From Cyanophora paradoxa CCMP329 (Eukaryota; Plantae; Glaucophyta), in assembly GCA_004431415.1 (NCBI GenBank), contig QPMI01000459.1, positions 1-64,000 of the forward strand: 64,000 nucleotides of DNA. The letters are read 5' to 3'. The notes below the pieces were generated by a model. That model did not search any database. It worked only from the letters and a program-made list of their open reading frames with translations, and had not been told where the DNA came from. Positions within the stretch are counted from its first letter, which is position 1. The number at the start of each line of letters is the position of its first letter. The translations under genes were made by a program, and so were the position numbers. Below, in pieces: positions 1-20,999 of this stretch.

Positions 1-20
1 ATCTGAATGAAGGGGGTAAA

Positions 21-1076
21 ATGGCCAAGGACCCCAAGAAGCCGAAGAAGCCGAAGGCGGCCAAGCCCCAGCCCGCCCAGCCCGCAGGCGCCCCGCGGCC
101 CCGCCCCGCCGGCCAGGCCACCGGCACGGGCTCGGGCACGGCCCCCGCCGCCGGCGCCAGCTGCGCCATGGGCATGACGAGGACGGCCACAGCTCACGCC
201 CGAGCAGGTCAACGCCTTCCTCGACAACTCGAAGACGGGCGGCATCGAGCGCATGGCCTGCCTGCCCGAGCTCAAGTGGTTCGACGTGAACACGTCAAGT
301 CCGACGCCACCGTCGTCTGCGTCGGCAAGCGGCGCACGGGCAAGTCCTTCTTCCTCCGCGATCTCATGTTCAACCTCTCCGGCACCTTCCCGGGGGGTAT
401 CGTGATCAGCCAGACCGATCGCCTGAACGGGTACTGGAAGCAGTACATACCCCAGCGCTTCATCTGGCCCAAGTACAACCGGGCGTGCTCTTCCATTTAT
501 TCAGGAGGCAGCAGGCGATCATGCAGCACAACAAGTCCGAAGACGTGCTCGCGGAAAGGAGGATCCCGTCGACCCGCGATTTTTCGTGCTGCTCGACGAC
601 GTGATTTCCGACGCTCGGCTGCGGTACGACGAGGCCCTCAACGAGCTCTTCGTGGCGGGGCGCCACTACAAAATCATGACCTTATCACGACGCAGTATGC
701 CAAGGGCATCAATCCGTCCTGCGCTCCAATACTGATCTGGCTGTCATTTTCAAGTGCTCGCAGGCGATGCAGCGCGAGGCCCTCGCAAAGGAGTGGGGCG
801 ACATCATATCCCAGCGCGCCTTCTACTACCTGCTCGACAAGTACACGCAGGATAACCACTGCCTTATCATCGATTCTTCCAACAACTCTACGAACCCTCT
901 GGACGTTCTGTACGTCTACAGGCCGAGGAGCCGCCCCCTTCCGCATCGGATCCAAGGAGTACTGGGAGGGCGAAACCGTCAACGGAGAAAATCTCGTGGG
1001 TCCGGACGACGGCACGGTGGACAAGACGCTCCTGGGCATGATAGATAATTTCAGGAAGCACCGCGGCCTCGCCTGA
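21..1076 (+). CDS. A32: A32-like (FtsK-HerA) genome packaging ATPase, broken by roughly ten frameshifts
   Basis: Walker A VVCVGKRRTGKS; in other frames Walker B RFFVLLDDVISD, ELFVAGRHYKI, ITTQYAKG, LRSNTDLAVIF and C-terminal PFRIGSKEYW. Confidence 0.9.
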   Translation: MAKDPKKPKKPKAAKPQPAQPAGAPRPRPAGQATGTGSGTAPAAGASCAMGMTRTATAHARAGQRLPRQLEDGRHRAHGLPARAQVVRREHVKSDATVVCVGKRRTGKSFFLRDLMFNLSGTFPGGIVISQTDRLNGYWKQYIPQRFIWPKYNRACSSIYSGGSRRSCSTTSPKTCSRKGGSRRPAIFRAARRRDFRRSAAVRRGPQRALRGGAPLQNHDLITTQYAKGINPSCAPILIWLSFSSARRRCSARPSQRSGATSYPSAPSTTCSTSTRRITTALSSILPTTLRTLWTFCTSTGRGAAPFRIGSKEYWEGETVNGENLVGPDDGTVDKTLLGMIDNFRKHRGLA

Positions 1077-1102
1077 TTTTTTCTGAGGCTTCGTGCGTAA
1101 GC

Positions 1103-1447
1103 ATGTCGCCCAGCGCCCACATCGCCTCCGTCTTCCGCGTCGAGTCCATCGTCTACGACTGCCTTCTGGAGTCAAGCCTCGACCCCTCCTCGCCCTTCAA
1201 CGACGGCGAGGTCAGCAGCGCCCTGGAGAGGATCTGCGACGCGCTGGGAATTAACTGGGAGCGCCTCACGTCGGAGGCGGCGGACGAGGCCGCGGCCGAG
1301 TCGCTGGGCAGCGAGGACACCAGCTCGGAAGAGATGACAGACGAAGAGGGAGACAGGGTTATTTACGTGCGCGACCCGGACGACTTTGCAACCTCGGAAT
1401 CGAGCTCGGAGGAGGAAGAGACCGAGGACGAGGACTCCGACGCCTAG
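1103..1447 (+). CDS. Viral hypothetical protein with acidic C-terminus (114 aa)
   Basis: Clean ORF, preceded by the viral upstream motif (TTTTTTCTG, 21 nt before ATG). Confidence 0.7.
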   Translation: MSPSAHIASVFRVESIVYDCLLESSLDPSSPFNDGEVSSALERICDALGINWERLTSEAADEAAAESLGSEDTSSEEMTDEEGDRVIYVRDPDDFATSESSSEEEETEDEDSDA

Positions 1448-1482
1448 GCGCGCCCCTTAAAAATTTCCGAGGCGCTAGGAAA

Positions 1483-1827
1483 ATGTCAAAGGTGCTCCTA
1501 GGGCTCTCCCAGGCTATCGTGCAGTACGCCCTCGGCCTGGCATCCGGCTCCCTCATCGACGCCGCCTTCTCCTCGCACGAAGGCGAAAACAGGGCGGGCC
1601 ACGCGGCCGAGCTCGCCGCGCAGGTCGCCGTCAACGGCCTCTCCCTCGGCCTGCTCTCGAAGTACGTGCTCACCCTCAAGTTCTTCGACGACGACCCCAC
1701 CGGCGGAATTATGTTCATCCTCGGATTCACACACGGGCAGACGAACATGCTAATCAAGGCTACCAGCGCTAGCTTCGGAATCAAGCAGGCGCTCGAGCGG
1801 AAGGCCGCCGCGATCACTAAAGAGTAG
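1483..1827 (+). CDS. Viral hydrophobic membrane/envelope protein (114 aa)
   Basis: Three hydrophobic segments (QYALGLASGSLID, AELAAQVAVNGLSL, PTGGIMFILGF..Q); upstream motif present; next to the ATPase. Confidence 0.7.
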   Translation: MSKVLLGLSQAIVQYALGLASGSLIDAAFSSHEGENRAGHAAELAAQVAVNGLSLGLLSKYVLTLKFFDDDPTGGIMFILGFTHGQTNMLIKATSASFGIKQALERKAAAITKE

Positions 1828-2777
1828 GAAAGAAATGCCAGTCGTTGTACTCGCAGATCCTGTTCCAAATCGAATCTAACTCCGAGAGTTTCTGCCTGCT
1901 CTTGAGCAAGGGGAAAAAGGGGAGGTGCTGGGGCAAATCTAGCAGCACGAAAATCTGCCTGAATACGTAATTGTAGTTGAGCATGTTCTTCCTGCCCTGT
2001 GACTTGAACATGCTGAAGGGGACCTCCACCAGGGCGAACATCTCCTGCACCCGGTCCATGTCCTCCGCGCTCATCGGAGGCGGGCGCTCGCCCGTGATGC
2101 GCCACTTGATCTGCGCCCAGCGCTCGATGTACTTCTGCTGCTTCAGAGCCCGGAGAACTTGGCGGATATTGTCTTTGCTCCACTCCTTCCCCGCCATGCG
2201 CCTCGCAATAGCTGCCAGCACGTCCTCGGGTACCGGAGAATCCTCCAGGCAGTGCTGCTTAAGTCGCTCAGATACGTGGTACTTCCGCAGGTAGTTGCTG
2301 TGGAGCTCGCTGACAGCCAGGGGTTGATGGTCCGGATAATAAAGATCCAGGACCAGACCGCAGCTTTGGCAAACCAGATCCCCATCCAGGTGAACACCAA
2401 CGAGGGCGGTAGAGCCGCAATTTCCGCAGGGGACAGCGGCTTCGCCTTGGGGGCCTTGGGTGCGGCGGTTGCGCTTGCGGGGGCGCTCTCCGGCCCGAGG
2501 TAGGAGTTGGCGATGGCGGCGGCGGCGGCGGGGTACGGTGCCGGAGCGTCGAAGTCTGGGTCCCCCTCGTCGTGAAGGATGGCTCCGTAGCGCTGGATCT
2601 GCTCAAAGTTTCGGAGGAGGAGATCGATTTCGCCAGAGTCTGCCATTCCTCCGAGTCCTCGTACTGCAGCTGGGCTATTCCCTTGCAGAAGTGGCAAACG
2701 GGCTTCGCGCAATCGAGTGGGTCCCAGCCGCAGGTGAGCCCGCAGATGTGACAGAAGGCGTTGCTCAGGTGATTCAT
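1817..2777 (-). CDS. VLTF3: Viral late transcription factor 3 (VLTF3, poxvirus A2-like), frameshifted; start at 2777 or 2646
   Basis: Zn-ribbon ...DGDLVCQSCGLV, YLRKYHVSERLKQ, and C-terminal RKNMLNYNYVFRQIFVLL...FPLLKSRQKL...IWNRICEYNDWHF, characteristic of the VLTF3 family. Confidence 0.9.
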
Positions 2778-2877
2778 GTGAGGCTCAGGTGGTGCTCAGG
2801 TGAGGTGCGGACGTACCCCGGGGCCCCACGTGGAAGCTCACCCCAGCCTCGGAAAATTTTCTAGGCCTTGGTCTGAC

Positions 2878-3720
2878 ATGCTCAACCTCATCGCGAGGGG
2901 CGTGGCAGCAAACAGGCAAGCCCGGGCACCGAACCCTCACCTCCGCATGGACGCCTCCGGCCGCTCCCGGGTAGAGACTCACATCGTGGTGGGCAACATC
3001 AACGACAAGGTGCTGGCGCCCGACAAGACGTGGTTCCAGAAGGTGCTGGACGCGGCGCCCGTGAGGAAACTGAACGGAGAGGATCGGCCCCAGCGCGAGT
3101 CGAATTTCATGATCACCATCCAGACCAACTACAAGCCGCGGAGCAGGGGAGAAGGCTCCAAGGTGCAGGACGCCTTTCACAGGGGGCTGGAGGCCCTCTT
3201 CTACGACGACAGGCAGCTGGCGCGGTGCATAAAGATGGGGGTGTACCCCGACAAGGCGAACCCCAAGGGCTTCGATTTCAAGTCCGACCAGTACGACACG
3301 CACGTGGAGAAGGGTAACGCGAACATCGGCATCGAGTACGGGCCGCGGTCGGGGCGGCTCCACGCGCACATCCTGCTCACGCTGGTGCACTACTCGCGCG
3401 TGCAATTCGACGGCAAGCGGGCGTCGGATTTCCTCATCAAGTTCATGCAAACGGAGGGACAGGGCGGCCTGCCGAATTTCTACAAGGACGACTGGTTCGG
3501 GGAGGAGTACCAGAAGACGGCGGTGCGGCCGATACGGAGAAAGGACGCCCTCGGCATGCAGTGGACGGGCAAGGAGACGGGCTACAGGAAGCGAGAAACC
3601 GCCAGGCAGATGCACGTAGACGTAAAATTGCTGCCGCAGAGCAACCTTAAGGATCTGCTGCAGCTGTACATTACGAAGACGGTAGAGGCCCTCGAGACGG
3701 GCGCTGTAAAGCTCGTGTAA
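2878..3720 (+). CDS. HUH-superfamily endonuclease, short paralog (280 aa)
   Basis: Motif I NFMITIQTN, motif II IEYGPRSGRLHAHILL, motif III LYITK (YxxK); ATG 2878 lies 18 nt after the upstream motif. Confidence 0.85.
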   Translation: MLNLIARGVAANRQARAPNPHLRMDASGRSRVETHIVVGNINDKVLAPDKTWFQKVLDAAPVRKLNGEDRPQRESNFMITIQTNYKPRSRGEGSKVQDAFHRGLEALFYDDRQLARCIKMGVYPDKANPKGFDFKSDQYDTHVEKGNANIGIEYGPRSGRLHAHILLTLVHYSRVQFDGKRASDFLIKFMQTEGQGGLPNFYKDDWFGEEYQKTAVRPIRRKDALGMQWTGKETGYRKRETARQMHVDVKLLPQSNLKDLLQLYITKTVEALETGAVKLV

Positions 3721-3743
3721 ATTTTTTCTCGTGTCCAATAAAT

Positions 3744-5773
3744 ATGCCTCCGAAGCGCCGAGGCCGCAAGAAGAAGCCAGAGAGCTCGAGCGAGTCAGAG
3801 GAAGAGGAGCCCACGTCCCCGTCCTCCGAGTCGGAGGAAGAAGAGGAGGAAGAGGAAGAGGAGCCGGAGCCTAAGCCGAAGGGCAAGGGCAAGGGGAAGG
3901 GAAAGGGAAAGGCAAAGGGAAACGCGCCGATACCGGCGTGGACGAGCTCGAGACGCCCGTCGTTGAGATTCCGAAGCGATACGTGCTGGTTCAGGGCGAG
4001 GACGGCATATTCCAGCAGCAGAAGAGCATATCCGATTACATCAAGCTCTCGGCCACCAAAGAAGTTCAGATGCTCCCATCGCTGCTCGATAAATCATACC
4101 ACGAGCCCGCGACCCTCTGGAGCATCCACAGCGAAATCGAGTACGATAAACTCCCCGAGGAGCGACTGCGCGCCATACCGCGCACGTACCAGAGCGCGCA
4201 GAAATCGCCGCCGATCTGCTACCGCTGCCTTCGCCTCATGTACGAGGCCACGCCCGTGCCGAGCGCCAAGGGGGCCAACACGCCAGAGAAAATCGCCGCG
4301 AGGGAGGCAGCGCAGGCGAGGAAGGATGCCGTGTACGAAGAGTACATTGCAGTCATAGAGAAGGCAAACGCGTGGGCAGCCAAGCAAAACGGCAAGGGAA
4401 AGAAAAAGGGCCAGGAGCCGTACCCCCTCATCAAGGACAAGAAGCCGGCGCAGGTGCCCACGGTGTCGCCCAGAAACTCGTGGCTCTGCCAGAAGTGCGT
4501 CACGTTGCTCGGCAACAAGGGCCTGCTCGTGATCTTGGGCCTGCAGAGGCGAAAGAGGGGCGACACGGCCACCGTCTCCAAGCAGACGCGCGACCACATG
4601 GTCGAGAGCGTGCTCGGCGGGCCGAAGCCAAAGACCACGAAAAAGGCAAAGGATACGGCCGCTGACTTCGGATCGTCCGTCATCGAGCCCAACTCCGCAC
4701 AGTCGAAAATCAGAAAGGCGAAAATCGTGGCGCCGAGCATGGAAGATTTAATGGCAACCTTCGCGGACGCGCAAGAGGTGAAGCAGAACATAGAGAAGGC
4801 GAAAACGGGACTGCAGGCGGCGCAGGCAAACGGGCTGGAGGCGCTCGAGAAGGTGATCACGGAAATCAGCGAGACGGGGCGGTCGGTCTTCATCCTCAAC
4901 AAAAAGAACCCCGACGGAAGCACGCGGTACGACATACGACAGGCGCGCCAGTCGCGCTACTGGGTGCTCTTCAACACCCACAAGCGCCTGGGAGAGGCGC
5001 GAGAATTCGAGGCGGCGGCGCTGCGCGACAGCCTCGCAGAGGTGCTCTCGGACGCAGAATTCTACAAGTTCATCCGCTTCAATTTGAAGGAGGAGAACGG
5101 CAAGTACAAGGACGACACGTACGCCAACGCAATCATCGGAATTCGCGTGCAAGGGGGCGTGGAGGTGGGGCCGACGGACGGGGCGCTGCACGCCCACGTG
5201 CTGGTGACGATCGATCACATATCGAACCTGCAGGTGCTGTGGGCGAATTACGACTGGGTGGTGCTGCTCAAGGAGAAGGAGCCGGGCACCACGACGGTGT
5301 ACGAGCGGCTGCACCAAATTCTGTCCGCGAAATTCACGGCGGCCGGGCAGCGCCTCGTAGACCAGAAGAGAGCAGAGGCAGGGCCGCAGCCGAGCATCGA
5401 TACGATGGTGGAAATCGCAGAGCTCGAGCGCATGCTGACGGAAGAGAAGATAGGCATGGGGAAAGATCCGCCCACCGTCCTTGCGTCGCTGATTCCGGAG
5501 GAAAATTACGCGAGCAAGCTGCAGGAGTACCTCTCGAAGACGCTGCCCGACAAGCAGAGGCGCGATTTACTGAAAGAGTGGTCGCACGCGCGAAACACGA
5601 ACAACACCGACAACAACACGGACGGGTACCTCTTCACGATTTTCCAAGCGGACGCCGGCCAGGCGGACGACCCCCGCTTTGCGCCGCAGGCCGCGGAAAT
5701 CGGCGATCTGAGGGCCAGGGGCCGAGGGCGCGGAAAGGGCAAGGGGCGCGGAAGGGGCAGGGGTAGCGGGTAA
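3744..5773 (+). CDS. HUH-superfamily endonuclease, long paralog (~676 aa, one frameshift near 3925-3935)
   Basis: YWVLFNTH, VEVGPTDGALHAHVLVTIDH, EYLSK (YxxK); N-terminal NLS-like PKRRGRKKK, acidic tract, CxxC pair (CYRC/CQKC), KG/RG-repeat tails. Confidence 0.85.
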
Positions 5774-5794
5774 TTGTTCTGACGCGCCCGCAAG

Positions 5795-6186
5795 ATGTTC
5801 GAGGGGCATGCACCCACTCGGACGTCATCACCGTAATCTGCGGCGCGCTCTTCCTGGTTTCCGAGCTCCTGGGCGGCACGGAGCGCGTGCGTCCCAACAC
5901 CGTGCTGGGCGCCCTGAAGGCGGCGGCCCTGAGGGTCGTGCGTCGCGGCGAGCCCGAGCCCGAGCCCCCACCCGAGCAGCAGAGGCGCGAGAGCGTGCAG
6001 GCGATCGGCCCGCACCACGTGGACATCCAGATGACGCAGACCGGTACGCGTTTTTTTCTAGAGAACATGGGAAATGGAGACTCCCGCGACAACAGCCCCC
6101 AGCGCAGAGGCTCCGTCGTCCTGCCCCGGCAGCAGCAGCAACAGTACGAGCACCAGCACCAGCACAGCGTTCCCTTGGCTTCTTAG
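5795..6186 (+). CDS. Small viral membrane protein (frameshift near 5805-5815)
   Basis: Motif-preceded ATG at 5795; the 5887-ORF frame reads DVITVICGALFLVSELLGGTERVRPNTVL (hydrophobic helix followed by SExL...N). Confidence 0.55.
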
Positions 6187-6442
6187 GACTTACGCGCGAA
6201 AGAAGCAGCAGCAGCCGAAGGAGCCGGCCGAAATGGCGGCTGACCTGGATCGGTGCACCCGCCGCGCCATCGCGAGCTACGCCAAGCGGGTCGAGCAGTA
6301 CCACCCCAGATGGCAGAGGACGCCAGGGCGTACGCGAAAAACCCCGCCGCGAGCCCGCCGTGATGGCCGCCGTCATCGACCGGCTGCAGTGGGCGCTGCA
6401 CGAGGAGGGGAGCGGGTGAGGAATTTCTTCATGCCCAAGTAA
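6074..6442 (+). CDS. Viral hypothetical protein (probably with internal frameshifts)
   Basis: ATG 17 nt after TTTTTTTCTA; stop immediately before the next motif. Confidence 0.55.
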   Translation: METPATTAPSAEAPSSCPGSSSNSTSTSTSTAFPWLLRTYARKKQQQPKEPAEMAADLDRCTRRAIASYAKRVEQYHPRWQRTPGRTRKTPPRARRDGRRHRPAAVGAARGGERVRNFFMPK

Positions 6443-6464
6443 ATTTCTGAATGGGCCCTTAACA

Positions 6465-6653
6465 ATGTCGTCCATGCTCCCGAGCCTCGATGATATCACC
6501 AGCGATTCCCGCTACCTGGGCAGCCTGCTGACCCTCGGCGCGGTCGCCTACATGTCGCCCGCGCGCTACTACCTCGTGCGGATCCTCGCCGCGCAGTTCG
6601 CGGGCTACTACTTCGTGGGGCCCTACCTCCTCAACGGCCTGAGGAAGGCATAA
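6465..6653 (+). CDS. Small viral membrane protein (62 aa)
   Basis: Two hydrophobic stretches; upstream motif AAATTTCTG. Confidence 0.65.
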   Translation: MSSMLPSLDDITSDSRYLGSLLTLGAVAYMSPARYYLVRILAAQFAGYYFVGPYLLNGLRKA

Positions 6654-6676
6654 TTTCTCAGGCCCCTTCCTAAATA

Positions 6677-7126
6677 ATGTCCTGCGTCAACCTCTACGTC
6701 CAGTCGAACGGAGAGACGCAGGATTCCGAGGGCTTCTGGCGCCTCAGGCTGAACCAGATCCCCGCCGACATCGACACGCTGCAGATCAAGGGAGTCTACC
6801 TGGAGCTGGATACGACCGCGATTCCGGACCCCACCGCCGCGAAAACCGTCAACGTTCTGCTGATGGACGTGCCCGACTTGAACGTCACGACCATCTCGAA
6901 CGTCAACACGTGCATCAACAAGGTCGTGATCCCGACGTGGGGCCACGACGGCCTCGAGAACACCATCCTCTACTGGTTCGAGGTGCCCATGGCCGTGCGC
7001 CCCAACTACGTCGCGTACGACAAGTTCCAGGAGCTGCGCGTGCGCTTCACCGACATCACGGGCGCCACCAAGAAGAACAACGCCTTCATCGTCAAGAACT
7101 TCGGCCTCTGGGCCTTTGCGAAATAG
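6677..7126 (+). CDS. Putative single-jelly-roll minor capsid (penton-like) protein (149 aa)
   Basis: All-beta pattern LYVQS...WRLRL...IDTLQIKGVYLE...NVLLMDV...ELRVRFTDITG, resembling minor capsid proteins of Bamfordvirae; fold is inferred. Confidence 0.55.
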   Translation: MSCVNLYVQSNGETQDSEGFWRLRLNQIPADIDTLQIKGVYLELDTTAIPDPTAAKTVNVLLMDVPDLNVTTISNVNTCINKVVIPTWGHDGLENTILYWFEVPMAVRPNYVAYDKFQELRVRFTDITGATKKNNAFIVKNFGLWAFAK

Positions 7127-7146
7127 ATTTTCGCAGGCCCCCTTAA

Positions 7147-7623
7147 ATGCGCCTGATCATATTTCCGCGGAAGGGCTCGGGCGTCAAGACGCGCACCTTT
7201 GCGGGCGTGCCAGGCTACCCCTCGCCCCTCACTTACAGAGTCGATCTTGTAACCGCCTCTGGTCCAATTAAATACGGGCTGCTGCACAGCCTCAGTCACA
7301 TCCGTCTCGGCGAGAGCGCATGGCAGGACTTGGCCTTAATCGTAGAATTCGAGTACAGGGGGGTAGACACGCTCACGGGCGAGCACTTCTACAGGGTACG
7401 GGTAGCGAGGGAGGGGTACTCGCTGCCGAACGGCACGGGCGGGGAATACTGGGAGCCGAAAATACGCGACGCCTCCGAGGCCTACCGCTGGCTGCGCGAC
7501 GAGCAGATCGTTGTCAGGCCCGATTACCCCTACGCCGACGTTTTCTGGCAGGTGCCGGCGGGCCAGTGGACGACGGGCGAGGTGAGCGGCAAGCTGAAGT
7601 GGACCTGGGAGGCGGAGCGCTAG
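7147..7623 (+). CDS. Viral hypothetical beta-rich protein (158 aa)
   Basis: Clean ORF between two copies of the upstream motif. Confidence 0.65.
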   Translation: MRLIIFPRKGSGVKTRTFAGVPGYPSPLTYRVDLVTASGPIKYGLLHSLSHIRLGESAWQDLALIVEFEYRGVDTLTGEHFYRVRVAREGYSLPNGTGGEYWEPKIRDASEAYRWLRDEQIVVRPDYPYADVFWQVPAGQWTTGEVSGKLKWTWEAER

Positions 7624-7649
7624 TTAATTTTTCTCTCTCGCGAACAGAA

Positions 7650-10600: not shown

Positions 10601-13008
10601 AGGGCGTATTCCAGACGCTCGACAGGCGCGTGATGGGCGACTCGGACGTTATTCTGCGCAACGCCCTCATGCCCTACGGCGACTGGAACCGCGCCACCGC
10701 CGACGCCCTTGCCGATTTCGACCTCGAGCGATTCACCACCAAAGAGCAGCGCGACGCCTACCTGGGGCGCCCGAGGGCAAGGCGGCCCGGGGTGGCAAAG
10801 GAGGCCCTCAGCGCAGAGACCCTCTTCTCGGCGGCGGGTACGGCGAACAACGACGGCATGCCCTTCGGCATGGCCGACCTCTTTCAGGGGGCGGGCATCG
10901 ACCTGGTGGGCGCCGGGCTCGGGGGTACGGGCTCGAGGTTCGGCAGACGACTGGGGGCGGGGGCGGCCGGCCTCGGGCTGACGGCGCTGGGCGGGCTGCT
11001 CTCGTCGTACCAAGCCCTGGAGAGCGGACAGATCACGCAAGCGCAGTTCATGGACAACTTCCGCGACAGCATGATCATGACCGTGGGCTCGTTTGGCATT
11101 CAGCAGGGGCTCACCTCCGGTCTCCAATTCCTGAAGCCCGGAATGAAAATCGGGTTCGTGGGTGGCATGGGCCTGTCGATTCTCGCAGGAATGATCGCCG
11201 GCGTCTTCGTGGACATCCTGAACAAGAGGGACGTGGGTACCATCATCAAAAACTTTTTTATGTACCCCATCAACTGGGCGGCCGATACGATTCAGTTCAT
11301 TGGTAAGATCGCACAGGACATGGTCGAGTGGGGCATCGAGACCTTTGGCTCCGAGGCCGAGCAACTGAGGATGCGAATTCGGCGAATCGAGGGTGAGTTA
11401 GGCGACAACCCCATGGGCGTTTTCACCGGAAGGGGCGGCGACAACGGGGCAATGAGACTCATCATGGAGATCGAAATGCTGAAGATGGATGCGGGAAACC
11501 AAAAGCAGCCCGAAAGCCTGCAGAAGTTCATCCACGCGCTTGACAACGCAATCAACGATTACCGTACCCCCAAGGACCAGAAGACTCTGCTCGAAATCGA
11601 TCGCGCGACGGTGCTTTACCTATCGCAGCTCACGGAAACAATGCAGGATGGGCTGCTGGCCCTGAACATCGGCCTAAAGCAGGTGATGCTGGATCTGAAG
11701 GAAATGGTGACGGCGGAGGCCAAGAACAGGAAGCGCGTGTTAATTGCCGTCTACCAGGAGGGCCTCAACAGGATCAATCACATCGAGGCCCTAAGGCGCG
11801 AATTCGGCTCGGCCATCCGACACTCGGGCGTCTCGTCGAACGGAGGGGCGCAGGTGGCCCGCCTGGCCGACGCCAACTCGCGCCTCGAGATTCCGGGTAC
11901 CTTCCGCATGCAGGATTGGTGGGAGGCCGAGGCCTTCAGGAATTACGGGGCCTTCATAGACAACGGGATTAATTCGCAGAGTCCCAAGGCCAACTGGCTG
12001 GTACCCAAGGCGTACGTCGATAAATTGATGGACAGGCCGGCGGCGCCGTACAGGAAAGAGGTGGCCAAGGGCGTCGAGTACTGGGCACCCTCGCCCGGCC
12101 AGCCCGTGTTTGCGGCGCAGAACTACGAGTGGCACGTGCCCTCGGGGCCCAGCCAGGCCATCAGCACCGTGGGCGTCGTGCAGCCCCAGCTGGCGGCCGT
12201 GGCCCATACGGGCGAGTACGCGGATCTGAAGGGGAAGCCAACGGAAGTGAACGCATCGCTGCTCGAGTACCCCGTCAACCAGCCCGTCAGCACCGTTGGC
12301 GTCGTGCAGCCCTGGCTGGCGACGGTGGCGCACACGGGTGCTTATGCGGATCTGAGCGGAAAGCCAACGACGTGGGCGTGGGATAGCATCACGGGGAAGC
12401 CGAGTACATACCCCCACGCCAGTCACAGGCACACCCTCTCCGAAATCAGCGACTGGACGGCCCCCGACTTGTCGAACATCACCGTGGACTGGGAAACCCA
12501 AGTTACGGGCAGGCCAGCCACCTTCCCCCCCTCGACTCACAGCCACAACGTGGACTGGGAAACTCAAGTTACGGGGAAGCCTCTCACCTTCCCCCCCTCT
12601 ACGCACAGTCACGCAGAGTACTCGCTCACCGGCCACGGGCACAGAAACGTGAACATGGATGCGTACATAACGCACGGCACGTCCTTCCACTCGTACGCTG
12701 CGTACACGGAGTTTAACATCAATTCAACATACACGGTGACGTTCAACATTACATTCGGACAGGCGTACGACACTGGAGGCGGATTGGGGACCCCAGCAAA
12801 CCCGACGCCGGTTATTAACGTAACCCCCTCGTTCGACATCAATCCTGGCGGCAGCACGGATGTCGATTTCTACGGGACCAACGTCACGGCGGTGAGTCAT
12901 ACTGGCTTTACAGTTAAAGTGAGATTCCAGCCCAGAATGACGGTCACACCCACCCAAATTGTCCAGCTTTTCATTCACTGGACCGCGATCGGCAAGCTGC
13001 TTATGTAA
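7650..13008 (+). CDS. Giant virion protein (~1786 aa after two frameshift corrections): His repeats, Gly/Thr linker, TM, long coiled coil, hydrophobic region, phage tail-fibre repeats, H-type-lectin-like tip
   Basis: ATG 7650 follows the motif; adding one G to G-runs at ~8606 and ~8692 joins the three frames (EAW-DKVAG...RKG-FVRQIDE); repeats LAxVAHTGxYADLxGKP, WETQVTGxPxTFPPSTHSH; ends GFTVKV...HWTAIG. Confidence 0.75.
8404..8600 (+). repeat. Coding tandem repeat, ~4 x 21 bp (GGGTGTG) within a Gly-rich linker
   Basis: ggtgggggtacaggcaccggg unit repeated. Confidence 0.85.
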
Positions 13009-13032
13009 TCGATTTTCTGATGCAATCCAAAA

Positions 13033-14231
13033 ATGTCTGTCGCCGTCCCTCTATTCACCTACGCTGCCAGCGTGAATCACAAGGGCGATCACACGATTAA
13101 GGAGACCACCCTCGGGGACCAGGCCACCGAGACCCCTACAACGCCACGGCCGTCCCTTCTCCGAGGCCGATCTCGTGCGAGTCGGCGAGCTGCGCTGCGA
13201 TAAGATGCGCACGCGGGAGGGCGGATCGGCCGTGCCGGGGCGCGTGAAGACGCAGAGGCTCACCGTCACGAACGGCTCCTGGGACGGGAGTGGTCACACC
13301 ACAAACGCCCTGACGTTCAACAACGCAGATGGGAGGCGAATGCGGCCTTGTACGTGCAGGGAGGGGCGCTAACGTGGTCGGGGGATTGAGAGTCAACGGG
13401 GCTGCGACGGTTACCGGCGTCGTCAACGCAGTCTCGGAGCTCAACTCCCCTAACATAACCGGAACCGCTAATCTGTCCAATGCAACTATCGGTGCGCCGA
13501 CATCCATCGCAACTTCCGTCTTGAACGTTAAAAGCAAAGACGTCGGAAGCGGACAATGGGCAAGCCTGTGGTGGGATTTCGACAACCGACACTACATGGG
13601 CGTGAAAAACTACAAAGTGGCCGATCAAGCCACCGTGACCTTATGGAACGATACAGCGGCCTGCCCTTTCTTTGTTGCTGCCCTCGGGTCTACGACAGGT
13701 CGCTCCATCGCAGCCGGGGGCACGGTCAACACCGCAGGAAGCGATTACGCAGAGTACATGCTAAAGAAATCCAACGACTTTGCCTTCAACAAGGGCGATA
13801 TCTGTGGGGTGAACGGCTCAGGACTCCTAACCAATCAATTTACGGAGGCCGTCACGTTCGTGGTGAAGAGCACCAACCCATCCTTCGTAGGGGGCGATAC
13901 CTGGGGCCAGTCCCTTGGAATGGCCCCCCTGAAGCCGGAAACGGACGACCCCACCGCCCTCGCAACCTACGAAGCCGCCCGCGCCGCCTGGGAGTCAGCG
14001 GCAGAGGCGAATCGGCAGCTGGTCGATCGGATTGCATTCTGTGGACAGGTCCCCGTGAACGTCAGCGGTGGGGGCCCGGGAGATTACGTGGTACCCACCC
14101 CAGGACCCAACGGAGCAATCGCCGCCCAGGCCGTGGCCGCCCCATCCTTCGACCAGTACAGGGTCGCCGTCGGTAGAATCATTCGAGTCGTTTCAGATAC
14201 GCAGGCGCTAATTATCGTGAAGGTTGTCTGA
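13033..14231 (+). CDS. Fibre/spike protein with C-terminal Peptidase_G2-like intramolecular chaperone (several frameshifts in the 5' part)
   Basis: Motif-preceded ATG 13033; ALYVQ-GGANVVGGLRVNG fibre repeat; GSDYAEYM...GDICGV...STNPSFVG...IAFCGQVPV...GDYVV...AVGRII. Confidence 0.75.
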
Positions 14232-14251
14232 TGAGCGATTACCGCACAAAT

Positions 14252-14273
14252 ACAATAATACCCTGATTGTTGT
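14252..14273. terminator. AT-rich hairpin between convergent viral genes
   Basis: acaataat-accctg-attgttgt (one G-U pair) in the 58-nt gap between stops at 14231 and 14290. Confidence 0.3.
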
Positions 14274-14289
14274 TCTTCCACATAAGATT

Positions 14290-16372
14290 TTACATGAGCG
14301 CGTGAACGGCACTGGCGTCCGTAATAAACGTGTTAAAGAAGAGCACATCGTCGACCCAGCCGTTCCAGAGGTGCGCGGGGGATGACTCGGTGACACCCGC
14401 TCCAATGCGCAGGGGATACTGCGTGTTTGGAGCGTAGCCGGCTGTCCTTGTTTCTACGGTTGAGCCCACGCGAATGGAGTGTGTCGTGCCATTGTACCCT
14501 ACGGCAATCTTATACTGCGTACCTGCATTCGCTGCACTCGTTCCGAAATCAGTCCACGCAGAGCCATTGCCCGTGTAGGACAGAAACACGCCATTGTTCC
14601 TGTACAACGAGTAGCCCGTGAACATGCCGCGGGATGCTACAGGGGTCCAATAAGTTCCTGTTGTCGTAGCGGTGAAAAGGCAGGAGCAAAGTACCGAGTA
14701 CGTCGAGGTATTGAGGGCTGCAGAGTAGGGAACTTGCAGATAATGGGAGCTGCCGACATCGAATGTCACCCGGCCACTCGTATAGCGAGGTTGCAAAGAT
14801 GCTGTATCCTGGGTCGCGTGCCTCCCACCCCCCGTCTGATCGTACATTGTCTGAACAGTTGCCGTGTACCCCGTCACCCAAGTCGTGTAACTTGTTCCAG
14901 ACCGATCGTACGCAGAATTCAAGACGCCTGAATAGTCAGCGTACCAATCGGCGGTAATTCCATCGCTGCGACGCAGACGGAGCGTGGGTCCGACATAAGA
15001 GGGCCGAACCCTTCGGGTTGAGTATGCGGCCACCAGTGCATTCTTGGTGGCCGTTGAAATGGTGGCGCTGTCCATAAAACTGTCAATTGTCGTCGCAAAG
15101 GCACTGCTGGAGGCAGGCCCCTCCTCGCCAATCTGGTTAACGCCCTTGACGGTGTAAGTGTAGGTCGTCCCGAACGCGGTCGTCCCGAACGCGGTCGTCG
15201 CGTCCGAATAGGGGCTGCTGACGTCGTTCGCGAGAAAGACGCCGTCCCTGTAAATGTTGTAGGAGACGGTGACGCCCGTCGCCGGCGCCGACCAGGCAAG
15301 CACCACTGGCTGGGCGGCCCCCGCCGTCGGAGTCGCGGTGAGCTCCGTGGGCGCCGCCGGATCCGTGGTGACATACGCCACAATGCTCTTCGGTCCCTCC
15401 CCTCCCGAGTTCGTCGCGGAGACCTGGTACTCGTACCCCGTACCCCAGATCGTGGTCGCGTCGCTATAGGAGTTGGTCGCGGAGTCTGCGAGGTAGGCCC
15501 CGTCCCTGTAGATCTTGTACCCCGTCGCCCCCGTTGGCGCCGTCCAGCTGAGGCTGACGGGCTGCTCTATGTCGTCGGGCGCAGTCGTCGTCACGTTCGT
15601 GGGCGCGTTCGGCGTCGTCCAGACCGGGAGCGGATCGGACTTTTCGTATTCGACCCGCCCACGATGCCGGCCACCTGGTAGGAGTACTCCGTACCCCACG
15701 CAAGGGCAGTGCTATCGTCGATGTACGAGGTAGCTAGGGCGCTGCTTGCGAATCCGATAGGGGTGCCGTCTCTGTAAATTCGAATCGAGTCCGCGCCCTC
15801 CATGGCCACCCAATTGATTGTGACGACGATGGCGGGTTTCGGGAAGCCGGAAGACGCGGGGCCGCCCCGGCAATAAAATCGCCGTAGGTCTGGGCCGTGG
15901 CGGTTGTGAGCGTGGTGTACGCCTCGATCTGAGGGTTGAAGCCGCTCAGGCCTTGGAAGAGAATGTAATTGCTTGTAGTGCCCTCGTGCGTGTAGAGAAG
16001 CGACTGTGCGTAGGTTGTGGGTGGGGCTTTGCCATCGGAGCCCGTGCTGCTGCTGCCCTGCTCGCGAACCGCGGCCACCCGGTAGAGACGTAGCTCGCCA
16101 AAATTAAAGGGCGTGTCCGTGTACGTGAGCGTGGGGGCGTTCACAGTGTTCACCAGCGTCCAGGTGCCATTGAGGCTCGTCGCCCTGTACACCTTGTACT
16201 TGACGGCGTTGGTGACAGCACCCCAGTTCAGTCGAAATCCGTAGGTACCGCCCCCGTTGTTGAGCACGGAGCCCGATCGCACCTGGGGCCTGCCCACAGT
16301 GAGCGAGATCGGCTCCACGCCGTACTGCGGAGCCTGCACCACCTGTTTCTTCACGAATACAAAGCGGGGCAT
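14290..16372 (-). CDS. Fibronectin-III repeat protein with C-terminal arabinofuranosidase-B-like/LamG (ConA-like) domain; frameshifts near 15,680-15,870
   Basis: Four FN3-like units (LxW...Y(K/N)IYR...YxDx...YxYxVxA); AAYSTRRVRPSYVGPTLRLRRSDG...YDQTGGGRHATQ...IGAG...WNGWVDDVLFFN. Confidence 0.8.
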
Positions 16373-16411
16373 TTTCCTCTACGATCCGAAAAAATATCTG
16401 CCCCGGGGTAA
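16373..16411. promoter_or_regulatory. 39-bp bidirectional viral promoter (two back-to-back motifs sharing one A/T tract)
   Basis: ccgAAAAAATATctg reads TTTTTTCG on - (17 nt from ATG 16372) and AATATCTG on + (15 nt from ATG 16412). Confidence 0.65.
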
Positions 16412-17089
16412 ATGACTTCCAACTGGTACCAGACTCTCAACTCCCTCGACGCCGGCAACAACAACTCAAACTTCGCGCGCATCCCCTCCGGCAGCTACGT
16501 CGACGTCTTCCTGCAGAATCCCGTCGTGATTCAAGCCGTTCAGAACGCCTACGCCACGCCCAAGATCTACTCCTACCAGCTCTTCTTCGACCCGTCCACT
16601 CTCAGCGCAGAGGTCATTGAGCTGCTCCACGAATCCGGCCTCGTGAAAAGGGTGGCGCCCGCCACGGCCACGGCCAACGTCCTGCGCTGTCTCGAGGTTA
16701 AGTTCAGGGAGACGGGGTACGGCCCCACCGTGAACCAGTACACCGATACCGCGCTGCCGGGTACGGGTGCGTTTACTGCGCGGGGTACGCTCAAGGGCGA
16801 CGTGCTCTTCACGAAATTCAATCCGAGTCCCGCCACCCTGGGAGCCCTCTACACGGGCGGCAACCCGCGCGCTTCCGGGCTACCCCGCTTCCCCTTCACC
16901 TTCTTCAAGTTCCAGGTCTTCCCCCTGCCCTACGCCGCCGACCAGCCCCACTTCAGCACGGGCGCCAGCCTCTGCGCGGAGCTGCGCGAGTGCTCGATTT
17001 CCTACAGGCACACCACCGGCTCCGACGCCGTGCAGCCCGCGGCCCGCCTCTCGGGCATCGGCAACGACATCGCCCTCTTCTACGGATAA
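16412..17089 (+). CDS. Viral beta-rich protein, paralog A (225 aa)
   Basis: Clean ORF; shares VxxQNP, YxxFD...SAE...SGLxK, LExKF, NPRA..PRxxFTxFxF with the next gene. Confidence 0.8.
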   Translation: MTSNWYQTLNSLDAGNNNSNFARIPSGSYVDVFLQNPVVIQAVQNAYATPKIYSYQLFFDPSTLSAEVIELLHESGLVKRVAPATATANVLRCLEVKFRETGYGPTVNQYTDTALPGTGAFTARGTLKGDVLFTKFNPSPATLGALYTGGNPRASGLPRFPFTFFKFQVFPLPYAADQPHFSTGASLCAELRECSISYRHTTGSDAVQPAARLSGIGNDIALFYG

Positions 17090-17112
17090 TCTTTCTCATC
17101 CGAGGTCGCAAA

Positions 17113-17895
17113 ATGCCTTCCACCTCGAGCACCATCGTGAAGACCGTGCTGCCCACCCCCGATTTCTACGGCGATGTCGCAGCGGCCAACGCCGGGACGG
17201 ATTCCGTGGTCTGGGACGGCAGCTACGCCTCCATGCTGACCGTGAAGATCCAGAATCCGATCATGCTGCGCGTCACCTCCAACGATTTCGAGAATCCCGC
17301 CTCCTGCTCCGTGTACGTGTACTTTGACATCGACTCGGGTGTGAGCGCGGACGAGGCGGAGGCCCTCTGGCTCTCTGGCCTCCTGAAAAAGATAGAGCCC
17401 TCCGTGCCGGATCGGCCCGCAATCCGAGTGCTCGAGCTCAAGTTCACTGCGAACACCGCCCTCACTCGCACCTTTAACGGCGGCTCCAAGACCCACATAG
17501 ACGGCACCGCCATCGATGCCACTCACAAGACCACGCAGGCCGTCCCCTTTGAGATGTACAATCTCTGGAAGATGACCGCAAAGGAAATGATGACGAATGC
17601 CACCACGGGTGGAGTCTCGGGTACCTCGTTTTCCTATGATTCCTCGAATCCCCGTGCCCAGCTCTGGCCCCGGCTCCTCTTCACGAAATTCACTTTCAAA
17701 TTGTACAACAACATTGCGGGTATGCCTACCTCTGGAATGGTCGTGGGTTCTACCCTCATGGCCGAGTTGATAGAAGCAGAGGCCGACTACACGACTGCCA
17801 CCACCAACCCTGCAAACGGCACGTCTACAAACTACGTATCCTGGGCCACGATCGGTCGCGAGTACGACACTAAGATTCACACCACTAGCGTCTAG
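17113..17895 (+). CDS. Viral beta-rich protein, paralog B (260 aa)
   Basis: True start MPSTSS at 17113, 19 nt after the motif; collinear similarity to 16412..17089. Confidence 0.8.
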   Translation: MPSTSSTIVKTVLPTPDFYGDVAAANAGTDSVVWDGSYASMLTVKIQNPIMLRVTSNDFENPASCSVYVYFDIDSGVSADEAEALWLSGLLKKIEPSVPDRPAIRVLELKFTANTALTRTFNGGSKTHIDGTAIDATHKTTQAVPFEMYNLWKMTAKEMMTNATTGGVSGTSFSYDSSNPRAQLWPRLLFTKFTFKLYNNIAGMPTSGMVVGSTLMAELIEAEADYTTATTNPANGTSTNYVSWATIGREYDTKIHTTSV

Positions 17896-18250
17896 ACTGG
17901 CTGAGCTGCACCAGCGCCTGCGCTGCCTCCATCATCTCCGCAATCTCCTCGCTCTTCTGCTGCAGGCTCGTACCCTCCCTCCTCTTCTTCTGGATCTCCG
18001 ACATCGATACCCAGCGCAGGTTCTCCCTCCTGTAGTCCAGCGGGTTGCCGTTGATGTGCTCCACGTACAGTCCACGTGGCGGCTTCCCGAGGATGAGCTG
18101 GGAGAGGTAGTGCTTGCGCCTCCCGAAGGTCTTGGTCACCCTGCCCCTGTCCAGTCGCCAGGGAAACTCCATCGCACTCCGGGGCACGTCCGAGTTGACC
18201 AGGACGTTGTAGGGCAGGTCGCGGGAGTCGGTGCACTTGAGCAGGGCCAT
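17885..18250 (-). CDS. HNH_3-family endonuclease-like protein, degenerate active site (121 aa)
   Basis: YLSQLILGKPPRGLYVEHINGNPLDYRRENLRWVS versus consensus LHRxI...VDHINGxxLDNRxxNLR. Confidence 0.8.
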   Translation of the reverse strand: MALLKCTDSRDLPYNVLVNSDVPRSAMEFPWRLDRGRVTKTFGRRKHYLSQLILGKPPRGLYVEHINGNPLDYRRENLRWVSMSEIQKKRREGTSLQQKSEEIAEMMEAAQALVQLSQSRR

Positions 18251-18289
18251 TTTGCCCTAGGCTCAGAAAATGTTCGACCGGGGACCTTG

Positions 18290-18775
18290 GACCTTGGTGC
18301 TCGGACCTTGGTGCTTGGTGCTTGGTGCTTTGGAAGCGTTTCTCTCAGGGTCCCGGCCCAGACTTTCTCCAGGATCAGAAATTTGTCAGACAAGTCAGGT
18401 GAGTTTTTCTACGGACTTTTTTTACTCGTAGTCTTTTTTAGTCGTACCACCCCTCATACTCTTTTTTACTCGTAGTCTTTTTTACTCTTACGACTTCTCG
18501 TACCCTCTGTCTCTTGACATCTCGCTTGAAATCGCTCTCGAAAACTCTGTCGACATTTCAGACTCTACCTCTCTCGAAATCTCACCTGGAATGTCACCGG
18601 AAACGTCGTATGCAAAATGCAGTACCCCTTTCTAAGTCTGCCCGATGGTTAATGACTTGGCGCGGCAAACTCGCAGATCCAGAGAAAGTCTGGACCCAGA
18701 CTCTGAGAGTAACGCTTCCAAAGCACCAAGCCCCAAGCCCCAAGCACCAAGCCCCAAGGTCCGAGCACCAAGGTC
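18290..18775. repeat. Imperfect ~110-120 bp inverted repeat (18290-18397 / 18653-18775) with CCAAGNC heptamer arrays, around a T-rich spacer with 24-bp direct repeats
   Basis: Reverse complement of the right arm aligns with the left arm (gaccttggtgctcggaccttgg...cttggtgctttggaagcgtt.ctctcag.gtc..g.ccagactttctc...caagtca); spacer repeat ttttttactcgtagtctttttta at ~18416 and ~18461. Confidence 0.9.
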
Positions 18776-18833
18776 AAGTAAAAATAGTCGGCCAATTTTT
18801 ACAAGTATGTACAATGGAATGACGCAATACTAT

Positions 18834-19885
18834 TTACAGCATCTCAAAATCAGAGTCATCGTCGGAAACCAAGTCAATCGGGGCCTCGGGCGCGGACTTA
18901 AGGGGAATGCGGGGAAGGGCCTGCGCTGCCTGCACTAAGTCCTGCCGCTCCTGCTCGCGCTGCGCCGCCAAGGCCGCTGCCGCCTCTGCCTCGCGCCGCT
19001 GCTGAGCCTCGACGCGCGCCCTAAGTTCCGCTGACTCCTTCTTCTTGCGCTCGGCAATCTTGGCCAGCGTCATCTCGCGACGAAGAAGGCGCTCGTGACG
19101 CAACTTGCGTCGGAGTTCGGCCATTTCGCGCTTGGCGATGATGCGCTTCTCAATGGTCTTGACGTGCTGAGTCAGGCGCTTGCTGAAGTGTGACGTCACG
19201 CGAGAACGGGCAATGCCAGCGCCGATCTTCAAGTCTTTTTCGTGTTCCTTGGCGGGATTCTTGACTCGCTCGGAGTTGTCGGTGAATGACGTGGTCTCCA
19301 TGAACTTCTTCTTGACGATTGACTTGGTCTTGATAATGCGGCGCTTGCGAGTCGGGTTTTCGTTGTCGCCTTCAGAGTCGGAAGAGGACTCAGAGTCGTA
19401 TGGAATCGGCACGTCAAAGTCGATAAAGTCGTTGATGTCAGACTCGGCGTCAGAGGCCTCGGACTCGGCGTCATCGACTGGCTCGGGAGCGGGCTCGGCG
19501 ACGGGCTGAGGGGCAGATGACGACGATGACGGAGGGGGGTAATTCGTGAAGACTTGAGGGGGATAGGCCCAGGCGAGCGTCTCGGCGGCAGACTCGGCGA
19601 AAAGCTTGGGGTCGCCCCAGCCAGTGGGAGTCTTGACCCAGCCGGGGACGGGGGCACGTCGACGGGCTCGGGCTTGGGCTCGGGCTTGGGTTGCTTGGAC
19701 TTGGGCAGAAGGGAGGATACAAAGTTGAGGTTGATGGTATGGAAGCCTTCTCCGCTGTGAGCTTGGTAGAGGTACCCCAGCTTGCGGGCACGCTTCTCCA
19801 TTTCACGGGTAGGCCAATCGCGGGACTTAGCCCACATCTCACGGGCCTTGGCAAGGTCCTCGACAAGCTCAGAGGGAATCGACAT
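18834..19885 (-). CDS. Viral nuclear regulatory-type protein (~350 aa, frameshifted): acidic tract, NLS, coiled coil, C-terminal SIM-like motif
   Basis: MSIPSELVEDL... joins via frameshifts to ...DAESDINDFIDFDVPIPYDSES...TRKRR...APIDLVSDDDSDFEML*. Confidence 0.65.
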
Positions 19886-20224
19886 CTGCGCAAAGGGAAG
19901 AGAGATCAGCAAAGGCAAAACGTGAGGTGACTGAGAGAGCGGACTTGTGAAAATTCGGAGAGGCGGGGATTCCTTGGGCTGAGAGAAGGCGGCGAACCCG
20001 TTTCAAGAGTGAGCCAAAATGGCGGCGGACCGCGGTTTTGTGGGCGATTTTTTTCGCGGTCTAGTTCGCAACGGAAAACGTTGCCAACTGGCCTGAAAAA
20101 AGCCAAATTTAGCGTTGGACCCAAGGCAGAAAAAGGGAGCCGGCCTGACGGAAATCGCCCGAGTGCGTCCGCCGAAGGTCGAGTCTCGGATGGGGGGTAC
20201 ACCCTCAGGGGCCCCCCTGGCCCC

Positions 20225-20695
20225 TCACCCTGGTAGTGCCCTCTCAAAGGGATTTTCGAAGCCGTACAATTCTTGGTAAGTCTCGTAATCCGGGCTGTAC
20301 CCCCTCACAATCTGCGGGAGCCCCATTGAAAGCCTCCGTCTATCCTCTCTCAATTCCCTGCGGAAAAGTCTACGGTCTTCTCGAGCTTCGCGTGTCACGC
20401 CAGCTGGGCGTGGTCTATGATTGTTAGGGTTGTCGTAGCCTGGTCCCACCAGCCTCACGAAATTTTCGCGTATGGCCTCGGGGAGGCTCTGGAAACGGCT
20501 CGTCGCGTGGAACTCAATCCATTCATTGAATCGACGCGGATATTGACGGATGACTTCAAGCACGCCCTGTAAGTTGGGCTCTGGTGTTACGTCGGGGATG
20601 TCATGTCCCGTGAGGTGCCAACGCCAGAACTCGCGCAACCTTTCGAATGCCATATTCAACTCAAAGGGAAAATCGTAATAGAGATTGCCTGACAT
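20225..20695 (-). CDS. Viral hypothetical protein (156 aa)
   Basis: MSGNLYYDFPF start 16 nt after AAATTTTCGG on the - strand. Confidence 0.7.
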   Translation of the reverse strand: MSGNLYYDFPFELNMAFERLREFWRWHLTGHDIPDVTPEPNLQGVLEVIRQYPRRFNEWIEFHATSRFQSLPEAIRENFVRLVGPGYDNPNNHRPRPAGVTREAREDRRLFRRELREDRRRLSMGLPQIVRGYSPDYETYQELYGFENPFERALPG

Positions 20696-20726
20696 TTTTC
20701 TCCCCGTCCGAAAATTTCCCCGCTTT

Positions 20727-20788
20727 TGGGTCCAGACTCTGATTTTAACTCTTCCCAAGTCCCAAGTCCCAAGTCCCAAGTCCCAAGT
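20727..20788 (+). repeat. Third, partial copy of the 18.3/18.7 kb repeat with 5 perfect CCCAAGT heptamers
   Basis: tgggtccagactctgattttaactcttcccaagt(cccaagt)4 versus tggacccagactctgagagtaacgcttccaaagcaccaagccccaag at 18691 onward. Confidence 0.85.
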
Positions 20789-20861
20789 TTTCGATCGATT
20801 TCACGCGTGAAAAACGCACTTTTCGGCCTTTTCGCATTTATTTTCTCTACCCCGGCCCAAA

Positions 20862-20999
20862 ATGGACCCCCTCCCCGAAATCGCGATCGAAAATGGTCGC
20901 GATCGTCTCGTTTTCGCGATCGTCGTGATCGGAATCGTCATCGCGATCGTCGCGATCATGGTGATCACCAGCCTCGTCTACGGTACCCCCCAGCTGTGA
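20862..20999 (+). CDS. 45-aa single-pass membrane microprotein (below the ORF-track cutoff)
   Basis: MDPLPEIAIENGRDRLVFAIVVIGIVIAIVAIMVITSLVYGTPQL*; ATG 18 nt after ATTTTCTC, AAAATG context. Confidence 0.7.
   Translation: MDPLPEIAIENGRDRLVFAIVVIGIVIAIVAIMVITSLVYGTPQL

Follow-up and report, generated by a model that had tools for sequence, protein, structure and literature searches.

A conserved, oriented A/T-run-TCYRA motif at gene starts of a mriyavirus-like element in Cyanophora paradoxa and of its gamadvirus-like relatives

The window analysed here is a 64,000-nt stretch of contig QPMI01000459.1 from the glaucophyte Cyanophora paradoxa CCMP329 (assembly GCA_004431415.1), and its positions 1 to about 21,000 form, judged by gene content, the right-hand part of an endogenous, mriyavirus-like element that exists in multiple copies. 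An earlier note on this DNA had proposed a viral promoter code within the element, consisting of a run of A/T followed by TC(T/C/G) and lying 15–21 nt upstream of 18 start codons. This motif, for which relatives gave the consensus A/T-run-TCYRA (Y, pyrimidine; R, purine), is a DNA word that is conserved, oriented, tied to gene starts and under selection. It is very probably a transcription-start signal of some kind. The complete favoured reading, in which it would be a one-per-gene core promoter or initiator used by RNA polymerase II (Pol II) of the host in the nucleus with VLTF3 as specificity factor, is given a probability of roughly 0.5.

At all 18 sites the TC and the ATG were found where the note had placed them, and the architecture it described was likewise recovered, with spacings of 15–21 nt (mode 17, 7 of 18), GC-rich spacers (66% GC) and A at positions −3, −2 and −1 before the ATG in 13, 15 and 14 of the 18. 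The window edge truncates the site at position 2, which was left unscored; the 17 scored sites, aligned on the TC, gave AWWTT-TC-T-(G/C)-A (W, A or T). A fixed rule was passed by 16 of the 22 candidate starts (the original 18 plus 2646, 2777, 8821 and 19885). Among other ATGs it was passed by 7 of 417 within the element and by 8 of 613 in the host region, an enrichment at gene starts with a Fisher p of 2e-19. The motif was rare in host DNA and in shuffled sequence, shuffled upstream regions giving a mean of 0.65 of 21 and a maximum of 5 over 5000 shuffles. As the fixed rule had been shaped on the window sites, the independent test was transfer to other genomes. Parts of the original description had to be narrowed. 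The note went too far in calling it nearly the only AT-rich sequence of the element, the listed sites holding 11 of 71 A/T runs of at least 6 nt and 5 of 9 runs of at least 9 nt. A T or C as the third letter was upheld by relatives but a G was not: on a matrix trained on relatives (the family matrix; pass, score of at least 6), which 12 of the 17 scored window sites passed, the TCG sites at 7131, 16389 and 20711 fell below 6, as did the TCTCT sites at 7632 and 20844. Family-matrix hits were denser in the element than in host DNA (1.62 versus 0.65 per kb), and sigma-70 and terminator scans stayed near chance.

The expectation that the same motif would recur in other mriyavirus genomes held in mriyavirus-like IMG/VR loci. 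A profile of 30 distant HUH proteins led to 16 such loci, of which L003 was dropped as a duplicate of L002. Open reading frame (ORF) starts were called mechanically in the 15 gamadvirus-like loci used. A matrix built solely from the 17 window sites picked out 98 of these 289 starts, where shuffles gave 8.4, and 131 of the 8010 other ATGs; the enrichment at starts was seen in every one of the 15 loci. An ATPase query returned 39 loci, one of which was left out and the other 38 dereplicated to 29. Of the 456 ORF starts here, 154 were marked by the window matrix (13.1 expected) and 291 by the family matrix (22.6 expected), the two sets of loci being partly dependent, as 8 of the 29 loci come from contigs also in, or duplicated in, the HUH set. 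Hexamers found de novo in relatives were TTCTGA (50 versus 2.2 expected), TTCTAA (34 versus 2.9) and TTCCAA (33 versus 2.0), and de novo refinement over the 15 loci gave sites at 192 of 289 starts (mode 17, median 20), 64 of the 192 being TCTA. Pooled, 413 unique sites had the core AWWT-TC-Y-R-A, placed at a mode of 17–20 nt before the ATG; YR stood at +2/+3 in 377 of the 413, a figure that describes the matrix by which those sites were selected. In a VLTF3 tree without an outgroup, the window's clade of four rows was separated from 26 IMG/VR rows with support of 100/100, and because of this separation the motif spans a deep split of the group. Scans with HUH, VLTF3 and ATPase found no relatives of the window's own lineage in viral or metagenome contigs, and conservation within that lineage therefore rests on one loose end, a diverged copy of the 5795 site in sequencing run X15 (loose end at 5803) that retains TCTG 18 nt before the ATG together with an A-run.

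The motif is also polar. It was found at 30 of 64 5′ ends at divergent junctions against 4 of 68 3′ ends at convergent junctions, and 173 tandem junctions carried it 66 times in sense and 11 times in antisense. Divergent genes often have one A/T run between two opposed cores (for example 2853/2860 and 16389/16397). Where genes overlap, the motif lay inside the coding sequence of the upstream neighbour in 14 of 15 and 16 of 28 cases, mostly 42–57 nt upstream of the start, compared with a coding-window background of 60 of 2117. At these motifs TTT CTR was the spelling of Phe-Leu in 12 of 15 cases in the one set and 12 of 14 in the other, compared with 18 of 180 elsewhere. In loci L017–L055, a conserved His-Phe-Leu at the 3′ end of the Mriya_50-position gene was encoded as CAT TTT CT(A/G) in 12 of 15 copies, and these codons serve at the same time as the motif of the overlapping next gene. 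Inside coding DNA the motif is kept by synonymous codon choice and is under selection, for which the overlapped genes provide the most telling evidence. The overlapped sites are orthologous in related genomes, and p-values therefore overstate their independence.

In the 29 ATPase-centred loci the ATPase gene carried the motif in 28, 25 of them as TCTGA. Among relatives it also preceded the major capsid protein gene in 8 of 11 cases, RuvC in 8 of 8, the YqaJ-like nuclease gene in 21 of 27, HUH and HUH_long genes in 19 of 23, and the gene at the VLTF2 position in 10 of 15 ("position" names follow gene order relative to the PEV2 numbering in Table 1 of PMC11253617, with no homology test). The label "late" in the earlier note was not supported by this gene content, because capsid, ATPase, nuclease, HUH and VLTF3 genes, and also the VLTF2-position gene, are all preceded by the motif, which is probably used for most genes and not for one late class. 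Two candidate subdivisions were rejected. The SSB-position gene looked motif-free (4 of 28), but it mostly overlaps its neighbour and has its motif further upstream; TCC versus TCT did not divide structural from regulatory genes, being gene-specific instead (mCP position, 17 TCC; ATPase, 26 TCT).

In the mechanism proposed for these sites, the A/T run would be an easily melted or factor-bound core that back-to-back genes have in common, and TCYRA an initiator, with transcription starting at or just after its purine; such a start would fit an initiator better than one at the TC. A canonical TATA box 17 nt before the ATG would, at Pol II spacing, place the start within the ORF, and this misfit favours an initiator-like role. 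Leaders would be about 10–25 nt long, rising to about 40–50 nt for overlapped genes, where the motif is more distant, so that the very short 5′ untranslated regions suggested earlier would not apply throughout. Every gene would have its own start and, intergenic gaps being about 20 nt, mRNAs from upstream would extend across the promoter that follows. Reading would take place in the nucleus, with VLTF3 as probable guide, and host Pol II is proposed because mriyaviruses, which are thought to be nuclear, have no RNA polymerase (PMC11253617). A wider and decidedly tentative idea is that the TCYRA word and the TCTA late promoter of Cafeteria roenbergensis virus (CroV) and mavirus go back to a single ancestral signal of nucleocytoviruses that VLTF2/VLTF3 recognise; in mriyaviruses, which form the phylum's deepest branch, those factors alone would redirect host Pol II for nearly every gene, with the Cyanophora copies as a culturable example.

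Several observations weigh against the initiator mechanism. Out-of-frame ATGs between motif and start were not depleted (55 versus 61.3 expected at 314 sites) and 4 of 18 window spacers contain one, while a scanned leader would be expected to avoid upstream ATGs unless they lie too near the cap. Only 13 of 26 VLTF3 genes in relatives carried the motif (15 of 26 with a later ATG allowed), and the window VLTF3 has none in the 32 nt before its ATG; were VLTFs required for reading it, motif-bearing VLTF genes would in turn call for a bootstrap. The absence of a VLTF2 match from the visible 21 kb also counts against the mechanism. Five of the 17 window sites fail the family matrix. No enriched motif is reported for Yaravirus intergenic DNA in the available text of 10.1101/2020.01.28.923185, and the motif may therefore not span the whole class. 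Finally, six sequencing runs are only guessed to be RNA, and contigs of such runs span sites 1082, 1466, 6446, 6656 and 7131, which fits read-through or DNA equally. Cover in three of the six reached 15–16 of 30 bins, where a DNA run had all 30, and their uncovered parts prove nothing. Contigs from two studies both begin at 6486 without a loose end, which places their ends 40 nt downstream of the 6446 TC; this hint is weak and maps no start. One contig, from one study, ends exactly at ATG 19885.

Alternatively, a helper giant virus could supply the RNA polymerase and the late factors that read the same promoter, and the elements would then be virophage-like. Mavirus and type 4 endogenous mavirus-like elements (EMALEs) use the CroV TCTA promoter (PMC5294985, PMC8547959), which the core resembles in its AT-rich flank and in the share of TCTA among family sites, and both the presence of the motif on all gene classes and the multicopy, endogenous state of the element (18-member ATPase cluster) would agree with such a lifestyle. 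However, the element encodes its own VLTF3, and the motif stays the same over diverged loci, while that of EMALEs varies from type to type (PMC8547959). Yaravirus is described as a lytic Acanthamoeba virus, and the region upstream of ORF 19885 resembles a 3′ splice site of host type, a hint of nuclear transcription for at least one gene. Reading by a helper virus is accordingly rated unlikely. A further possibility is that the motif is an upstream promoter element and that transcription starts later, in the A-rich bases before the ATG, in a geometry like that of poxvirus TAAATG or of the late promoter motif (LPM) of African swine fever virus (ASFV). The A-rich positions before window ATGs, the undepleted upstream ATGs and the sharp rise of the spacing distribution at 15–17 nt would all suit this, as would the distance of the ASFV late motif from its start (4–12 bp; PMC7163114). 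The A-rich context is weak in relatives, however, in 103 long-spacing sites no second element was strongly conserved at a constant distance from either TC or ATG, and overlapped genes stretch the spacing to 42–57 nt; the odds are held to be clearly against a later start.

An RNA-level signal, acting in translation re-initiation, as a leader element on long read-through transcripts or as a trans-splice acceptor, would explain why the motif is strand-specific and near the ATG, why gaps are tiny and why contigs of the presumed RNA runs cross several sites. The motif is nevertheless present at divergent genes, which have no upstream cistron and often stand back-to-back on one A/T run; AG is not enriched in spacers (192 versus 180 of 232) and is missing from 5 of 18 window spacers; and the one truly coupled ORF lacks the motif at 10–32 nt (0 of 15). 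It is considered improbable that the motif acts at the RNA level. The proximity of upstream stop codons, which fall 3–9 nt before the TC in 9 of 10 window tandem junctions, and the ending of ASFV transcripts at poly(T) (PMC7163114) might suggest that the motif serves the upstream gene as terminator or polyadenylation signal, a reading largely refuted by the contrast between convergent 3′ ends and divergent 5′ ends and by the occurrence of the motif inside coding DNA. Nor is the motif a by-product of stop codons and AT-rich spacers. The run often takes its first A/T bases from a TAA, TAG or TGA, but the TRA triplet is the upstream stop codon in only 6 of 185 sites, composition-preserving shuffles gave 8.4 and 13.1 where 98 and 154 were counted, and codon choice within genes is selected, by which this explanation is refuted.

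The individual sites are collected in Table 1. The earlier note had used the motif to correct several ORF starts, and two of these corrections, 5795 and 13033, were favoured by short-read contigs, since the short ORFs there (13 and 56 aa) coincide with single extra bases at 5802 and 13132; the putative starts 6074 and 20862 gained no outside support. ATG 7650 is likely the start of one long, frameshift-broken gene extending to 13008. ORF 1483 has a weak homolog, L013_743. A strong site absent from the original list, 2853(−), has no ATG within 32 nt and lies 76 nt before ATG 2777, which opens a Cys-rich frame on the minus strand, and 207 nt before VLTF3. Neither VLTF3, the frame at 2777 nor ORF 19885 has a close motif site in the window. 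Upstream of ATG 19885, positions 19886–19945 (−) contain a pyrimidine-rich stretch that resembles a branch point and runs up to GCAG|ATG. Some 59 nt upstream stands a possible GT donor, directly preceded by an A/T-run-TC; this is possibly a 5′-leader intron in a viral gene.

Table 1. Motif sites and core genes of the element in the window. Scores are those of the family matrix; spacing is from the TC to the ATG.
Feature	Position	Strand	Relation to gene	Score
TCTGA, edge-cut	1..6	+	19 nt before ATPase ATG 21	
A32-like packaging ATPase	21..1076	+	frameshifted in this copy	
TCTGA	1076..1086	+	21 nt before ORF 1103 (exact EukProt model)	13.0
TCCGA	1460..1470	+	17 nt before ORF 1483	13.0
VLTF3	1817..2646	−	frameshifted in this copy; PF04947, E 1.3e-23	
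TCCGA, unlisted	2849..2859	−	back-to-back with 2860(+)	13.2
TCTAG	2854..2864	+	18 nt before HUH gene	12.0
HUH endonuclease	2878..3720	+	HAH and YxxK motifs (motifs II and III)	
TCTCG	3721..3731	+	17 nt before HUH_long	7.6
HUH_long-like protein	3744..5773	+	about 680 aa spread over two frames	
TCTGA	5772..5782	+	17 nt before ATG 5795	9.8
TCTAG	6051..6061	+	within upstream frame (Phe-Phe-Leu codons); 17 nt before putative start 6074	
TCTGA	6440..6450	+	19 nt before ORF 6465	12.5
TCTCA	6650..6660	+	21 nt before ORF 6677 (exact EukProt model)	11.1
TCGCA, variant	7125..7135	+	16 nt before ORF 7147	3.4
TCTCT, variant	7626..7636	+	18 nt before ATG 7650	2.3
TCTGA	13010..13020	+	17 nt before ATG 13033	13.5
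TCGGA, variant	16385..16395	−	17 nt before FN3-repeat gene 16372; A/T run in common with 16397(+)	4.3
TCTGC	16391..16401	+	15 nt before ORF 16412	6.1
TCTCA	17088..17098	+	19 nt before ORF 17113 (16412 paralog)	8.4
TCTGA	18263..18273	−	17 nt before HNH endonuclease gene 18250	13.7
TCGGA, variant	20707..20717	−	16 nt before ORF 20695	5.2
TCTCT, variant	20838..20848	+	18 nt before putative start 20862 (45-aa hydrophobic ORF)	

The earlier identification of the element as mriyavirus-like was borne out by the presence of an A32-like ATPase, VLTF3, HUH and HUH_long. The ATPase pieces match the L001 ATPase (E 5e-23 to 1e-15) and a host-genome copy, P0184, is 51% identical to that ATPase and matches Pox_A32 (E 0.0012); the N-terminus of VLTF3 agrees with P0018/P0022. 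The C-terminal HUH domain of the HUH_long-like protein shares 24% identity with the window HUH and matches gamadvirus-like HUH proteins, and the two genes are adjacent in the order seen in IMG/VR loci, where the long protein has 1590–1890 aa against about 680 aa here. The HUH profile retrieved 495 proteins, including forms of 220–300 aa and of 1500–1900 aa; searches of the PDB with this profile and of the Atlas with ORF 6677 gave nothing usable. The frame downstream of 16372 contains FN3 repeats (fn3, E 7e-9) and the gene at 18250 an HNH_3 domain (E 2.8e-8). When window frames were compared by blastp with the proteins of L001–L016, as a check for VLTF2 and the ten gamadvirus-specific proteins among others, only ATPase, VLTF3, HUH/HUH_long and one small ORF matched. 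This search found no VLTF2 homolog in the visible 21 kb, and within the same 21 kb no homolog was detected of most gamadvirus-conserved genes, nor a major capsid protein of the nucleocytoplasmic large DNA virus type, RuvC, PDDEXK nuclease or helicase, the window beginning at the ATPase, nor a DNA or RNA polymerase, the left part of the element lying outside the window. On this gene content and the VLTF3 tree the element would belong to a gamadvirus-related, divergent lineage, and it was not filed as a member of Gamadviridae.

Five of ten window ORFs looked up in EukProt were present as exact sequences, in clusters otherwise labelled Cyanophora paradoxa. The element is considered multicopy and endogenous because the ATPase cluster has 18 members; those of ORF 7147, ORF 16412 and ORF 1103 have 17, 14 and 13, and many members have full-length frames. 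Host genes start near 24400. Single-base indels set short-read contigs apart from the window at 679, 713, 919, 933, 2493, 5802, 7647, 13132 and 15864, several of them at frameshifts, and many breaks are therefore copy-specific or long-read errors. In run X1, near-identical contigs covered positions 1–20000 at a depth of 143–200, with a dominant variant at about 3000–3600; this would suit many copies or a free form, depth not being a measure of copy number. Positions 7650–16372 hold large coiled-coil and fibre-like genes and the FN3-repeat gene, none of which match proteins of the IMG/VR loci, and these are possibly lineage-specific virion fibre genes. A 94-nt inverted repeat (18276–18369 and 18682–18775, 83% complementary) is built of 7-nt subrepeats, and the 312 nt between its arms contain a 44-nt direct repeat; the region is a candidate origin of replication, or else a candidate genome-end junction, for the HUH protein. 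In the host part, 24365–34400 carries genes with many short introns, several with apparent GC donors, and a FAD-oxidoreductase-like gene lies near 31000.

Mriyaviruses are the proposed closest living relatives of the giant-virus ancestor and have no RNA polymerase, which is why the switching on of their genes matters; if the motif is a promoter, it offers a direct handle on transcription in polymerase-less viruses. Its fixed position makes it a concrete candidate DNA target for VLTF3/VLTF2 and allows host-Pol II and helper-virus (virophage-like) lifestyles to be distinguished. It improves the calling of starts and small genes across the group, and an alga with at least 18 element copies is a cheap system for testing its function. 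The word "promoter" does not occur in the available text of the mriyavirus paper PMC11253617, nor in that of two 2026 preprints discussing mriyaviruses, and literature searches, with supplements and most subscription journals outside their reach, found no mriyavirus promoter; motifs reported in the available parts of the PgVV preprint and of an Antarctic study concern other virus groups. Of Cyanophora elements in print, these searches gave only a passing mention of C. paradoxa PLVs (Polinton-like viruses). A gene-start motif common to gamadvirus-like mriyaviruses and a divergent endogenous glaucophyte lineage is thus apparently undescribed.

Among known systems, Gamadviridae within Mriyaviricetes are described as having an A32 ATPase, VLTF3 and adjacent HUH and HUH_long genes in genomes of 35–45 kb without a polymerase (PMC11253617). 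The element resembles them in this gene set and in its duplicated HUH, and differs in its short HUH_long, its divergent lineage and its glaucophyte host. The late promoter of CroV lies at about −11 to −20. TCTA is the late promoter word in CroV, mavirus, type 4 EMALEs and ChlorV (PMC5294985, PMC8547959, PMC13196603). Of the signals already described it stands nearest to the motif, which is similar in its TCT-purine core, its A/T-rich 5′ flank and its place close before the ATG. Its core is TC-Y-R-A, however, with TCTG as common as TCTA and TCC frequent; of the 18 window sites just 2 are TCTA; AT-richness does not extend to the 3′ flank, the spacer composition of relatives being mixed; and mriyaviruses have no RNA polymerase and no late-gene restriction evident from gene content. 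As the AT-rich flank is one-sided and TCTA only part of the repertoire, the motif was not filed as a CroV/mavirus promoter. ASFV combines a late initiator, TA(+1)TA, with the upstream LPM, and poxviruses use a late TAAAT (PMC7163114, PMC5294985). These share with the present motif a compact AT-rich core, an initiator and very short leaders (the last two as predicted here) and encoded late transcription factors, and differ in sequence and in depending on viral polymerases in the cytoplasm. In chloroviruses, an AAAAATANTT element is found 10–31 nt before the ATG of a handful of genes (PMC5294985), and this group relies on the host polymerase (PMC12085832). No TCYRA core is reported there in the text available; the likeness is that a nucleocytovirus group dependent on host polymerase has an A/T run about as far from the ATG.

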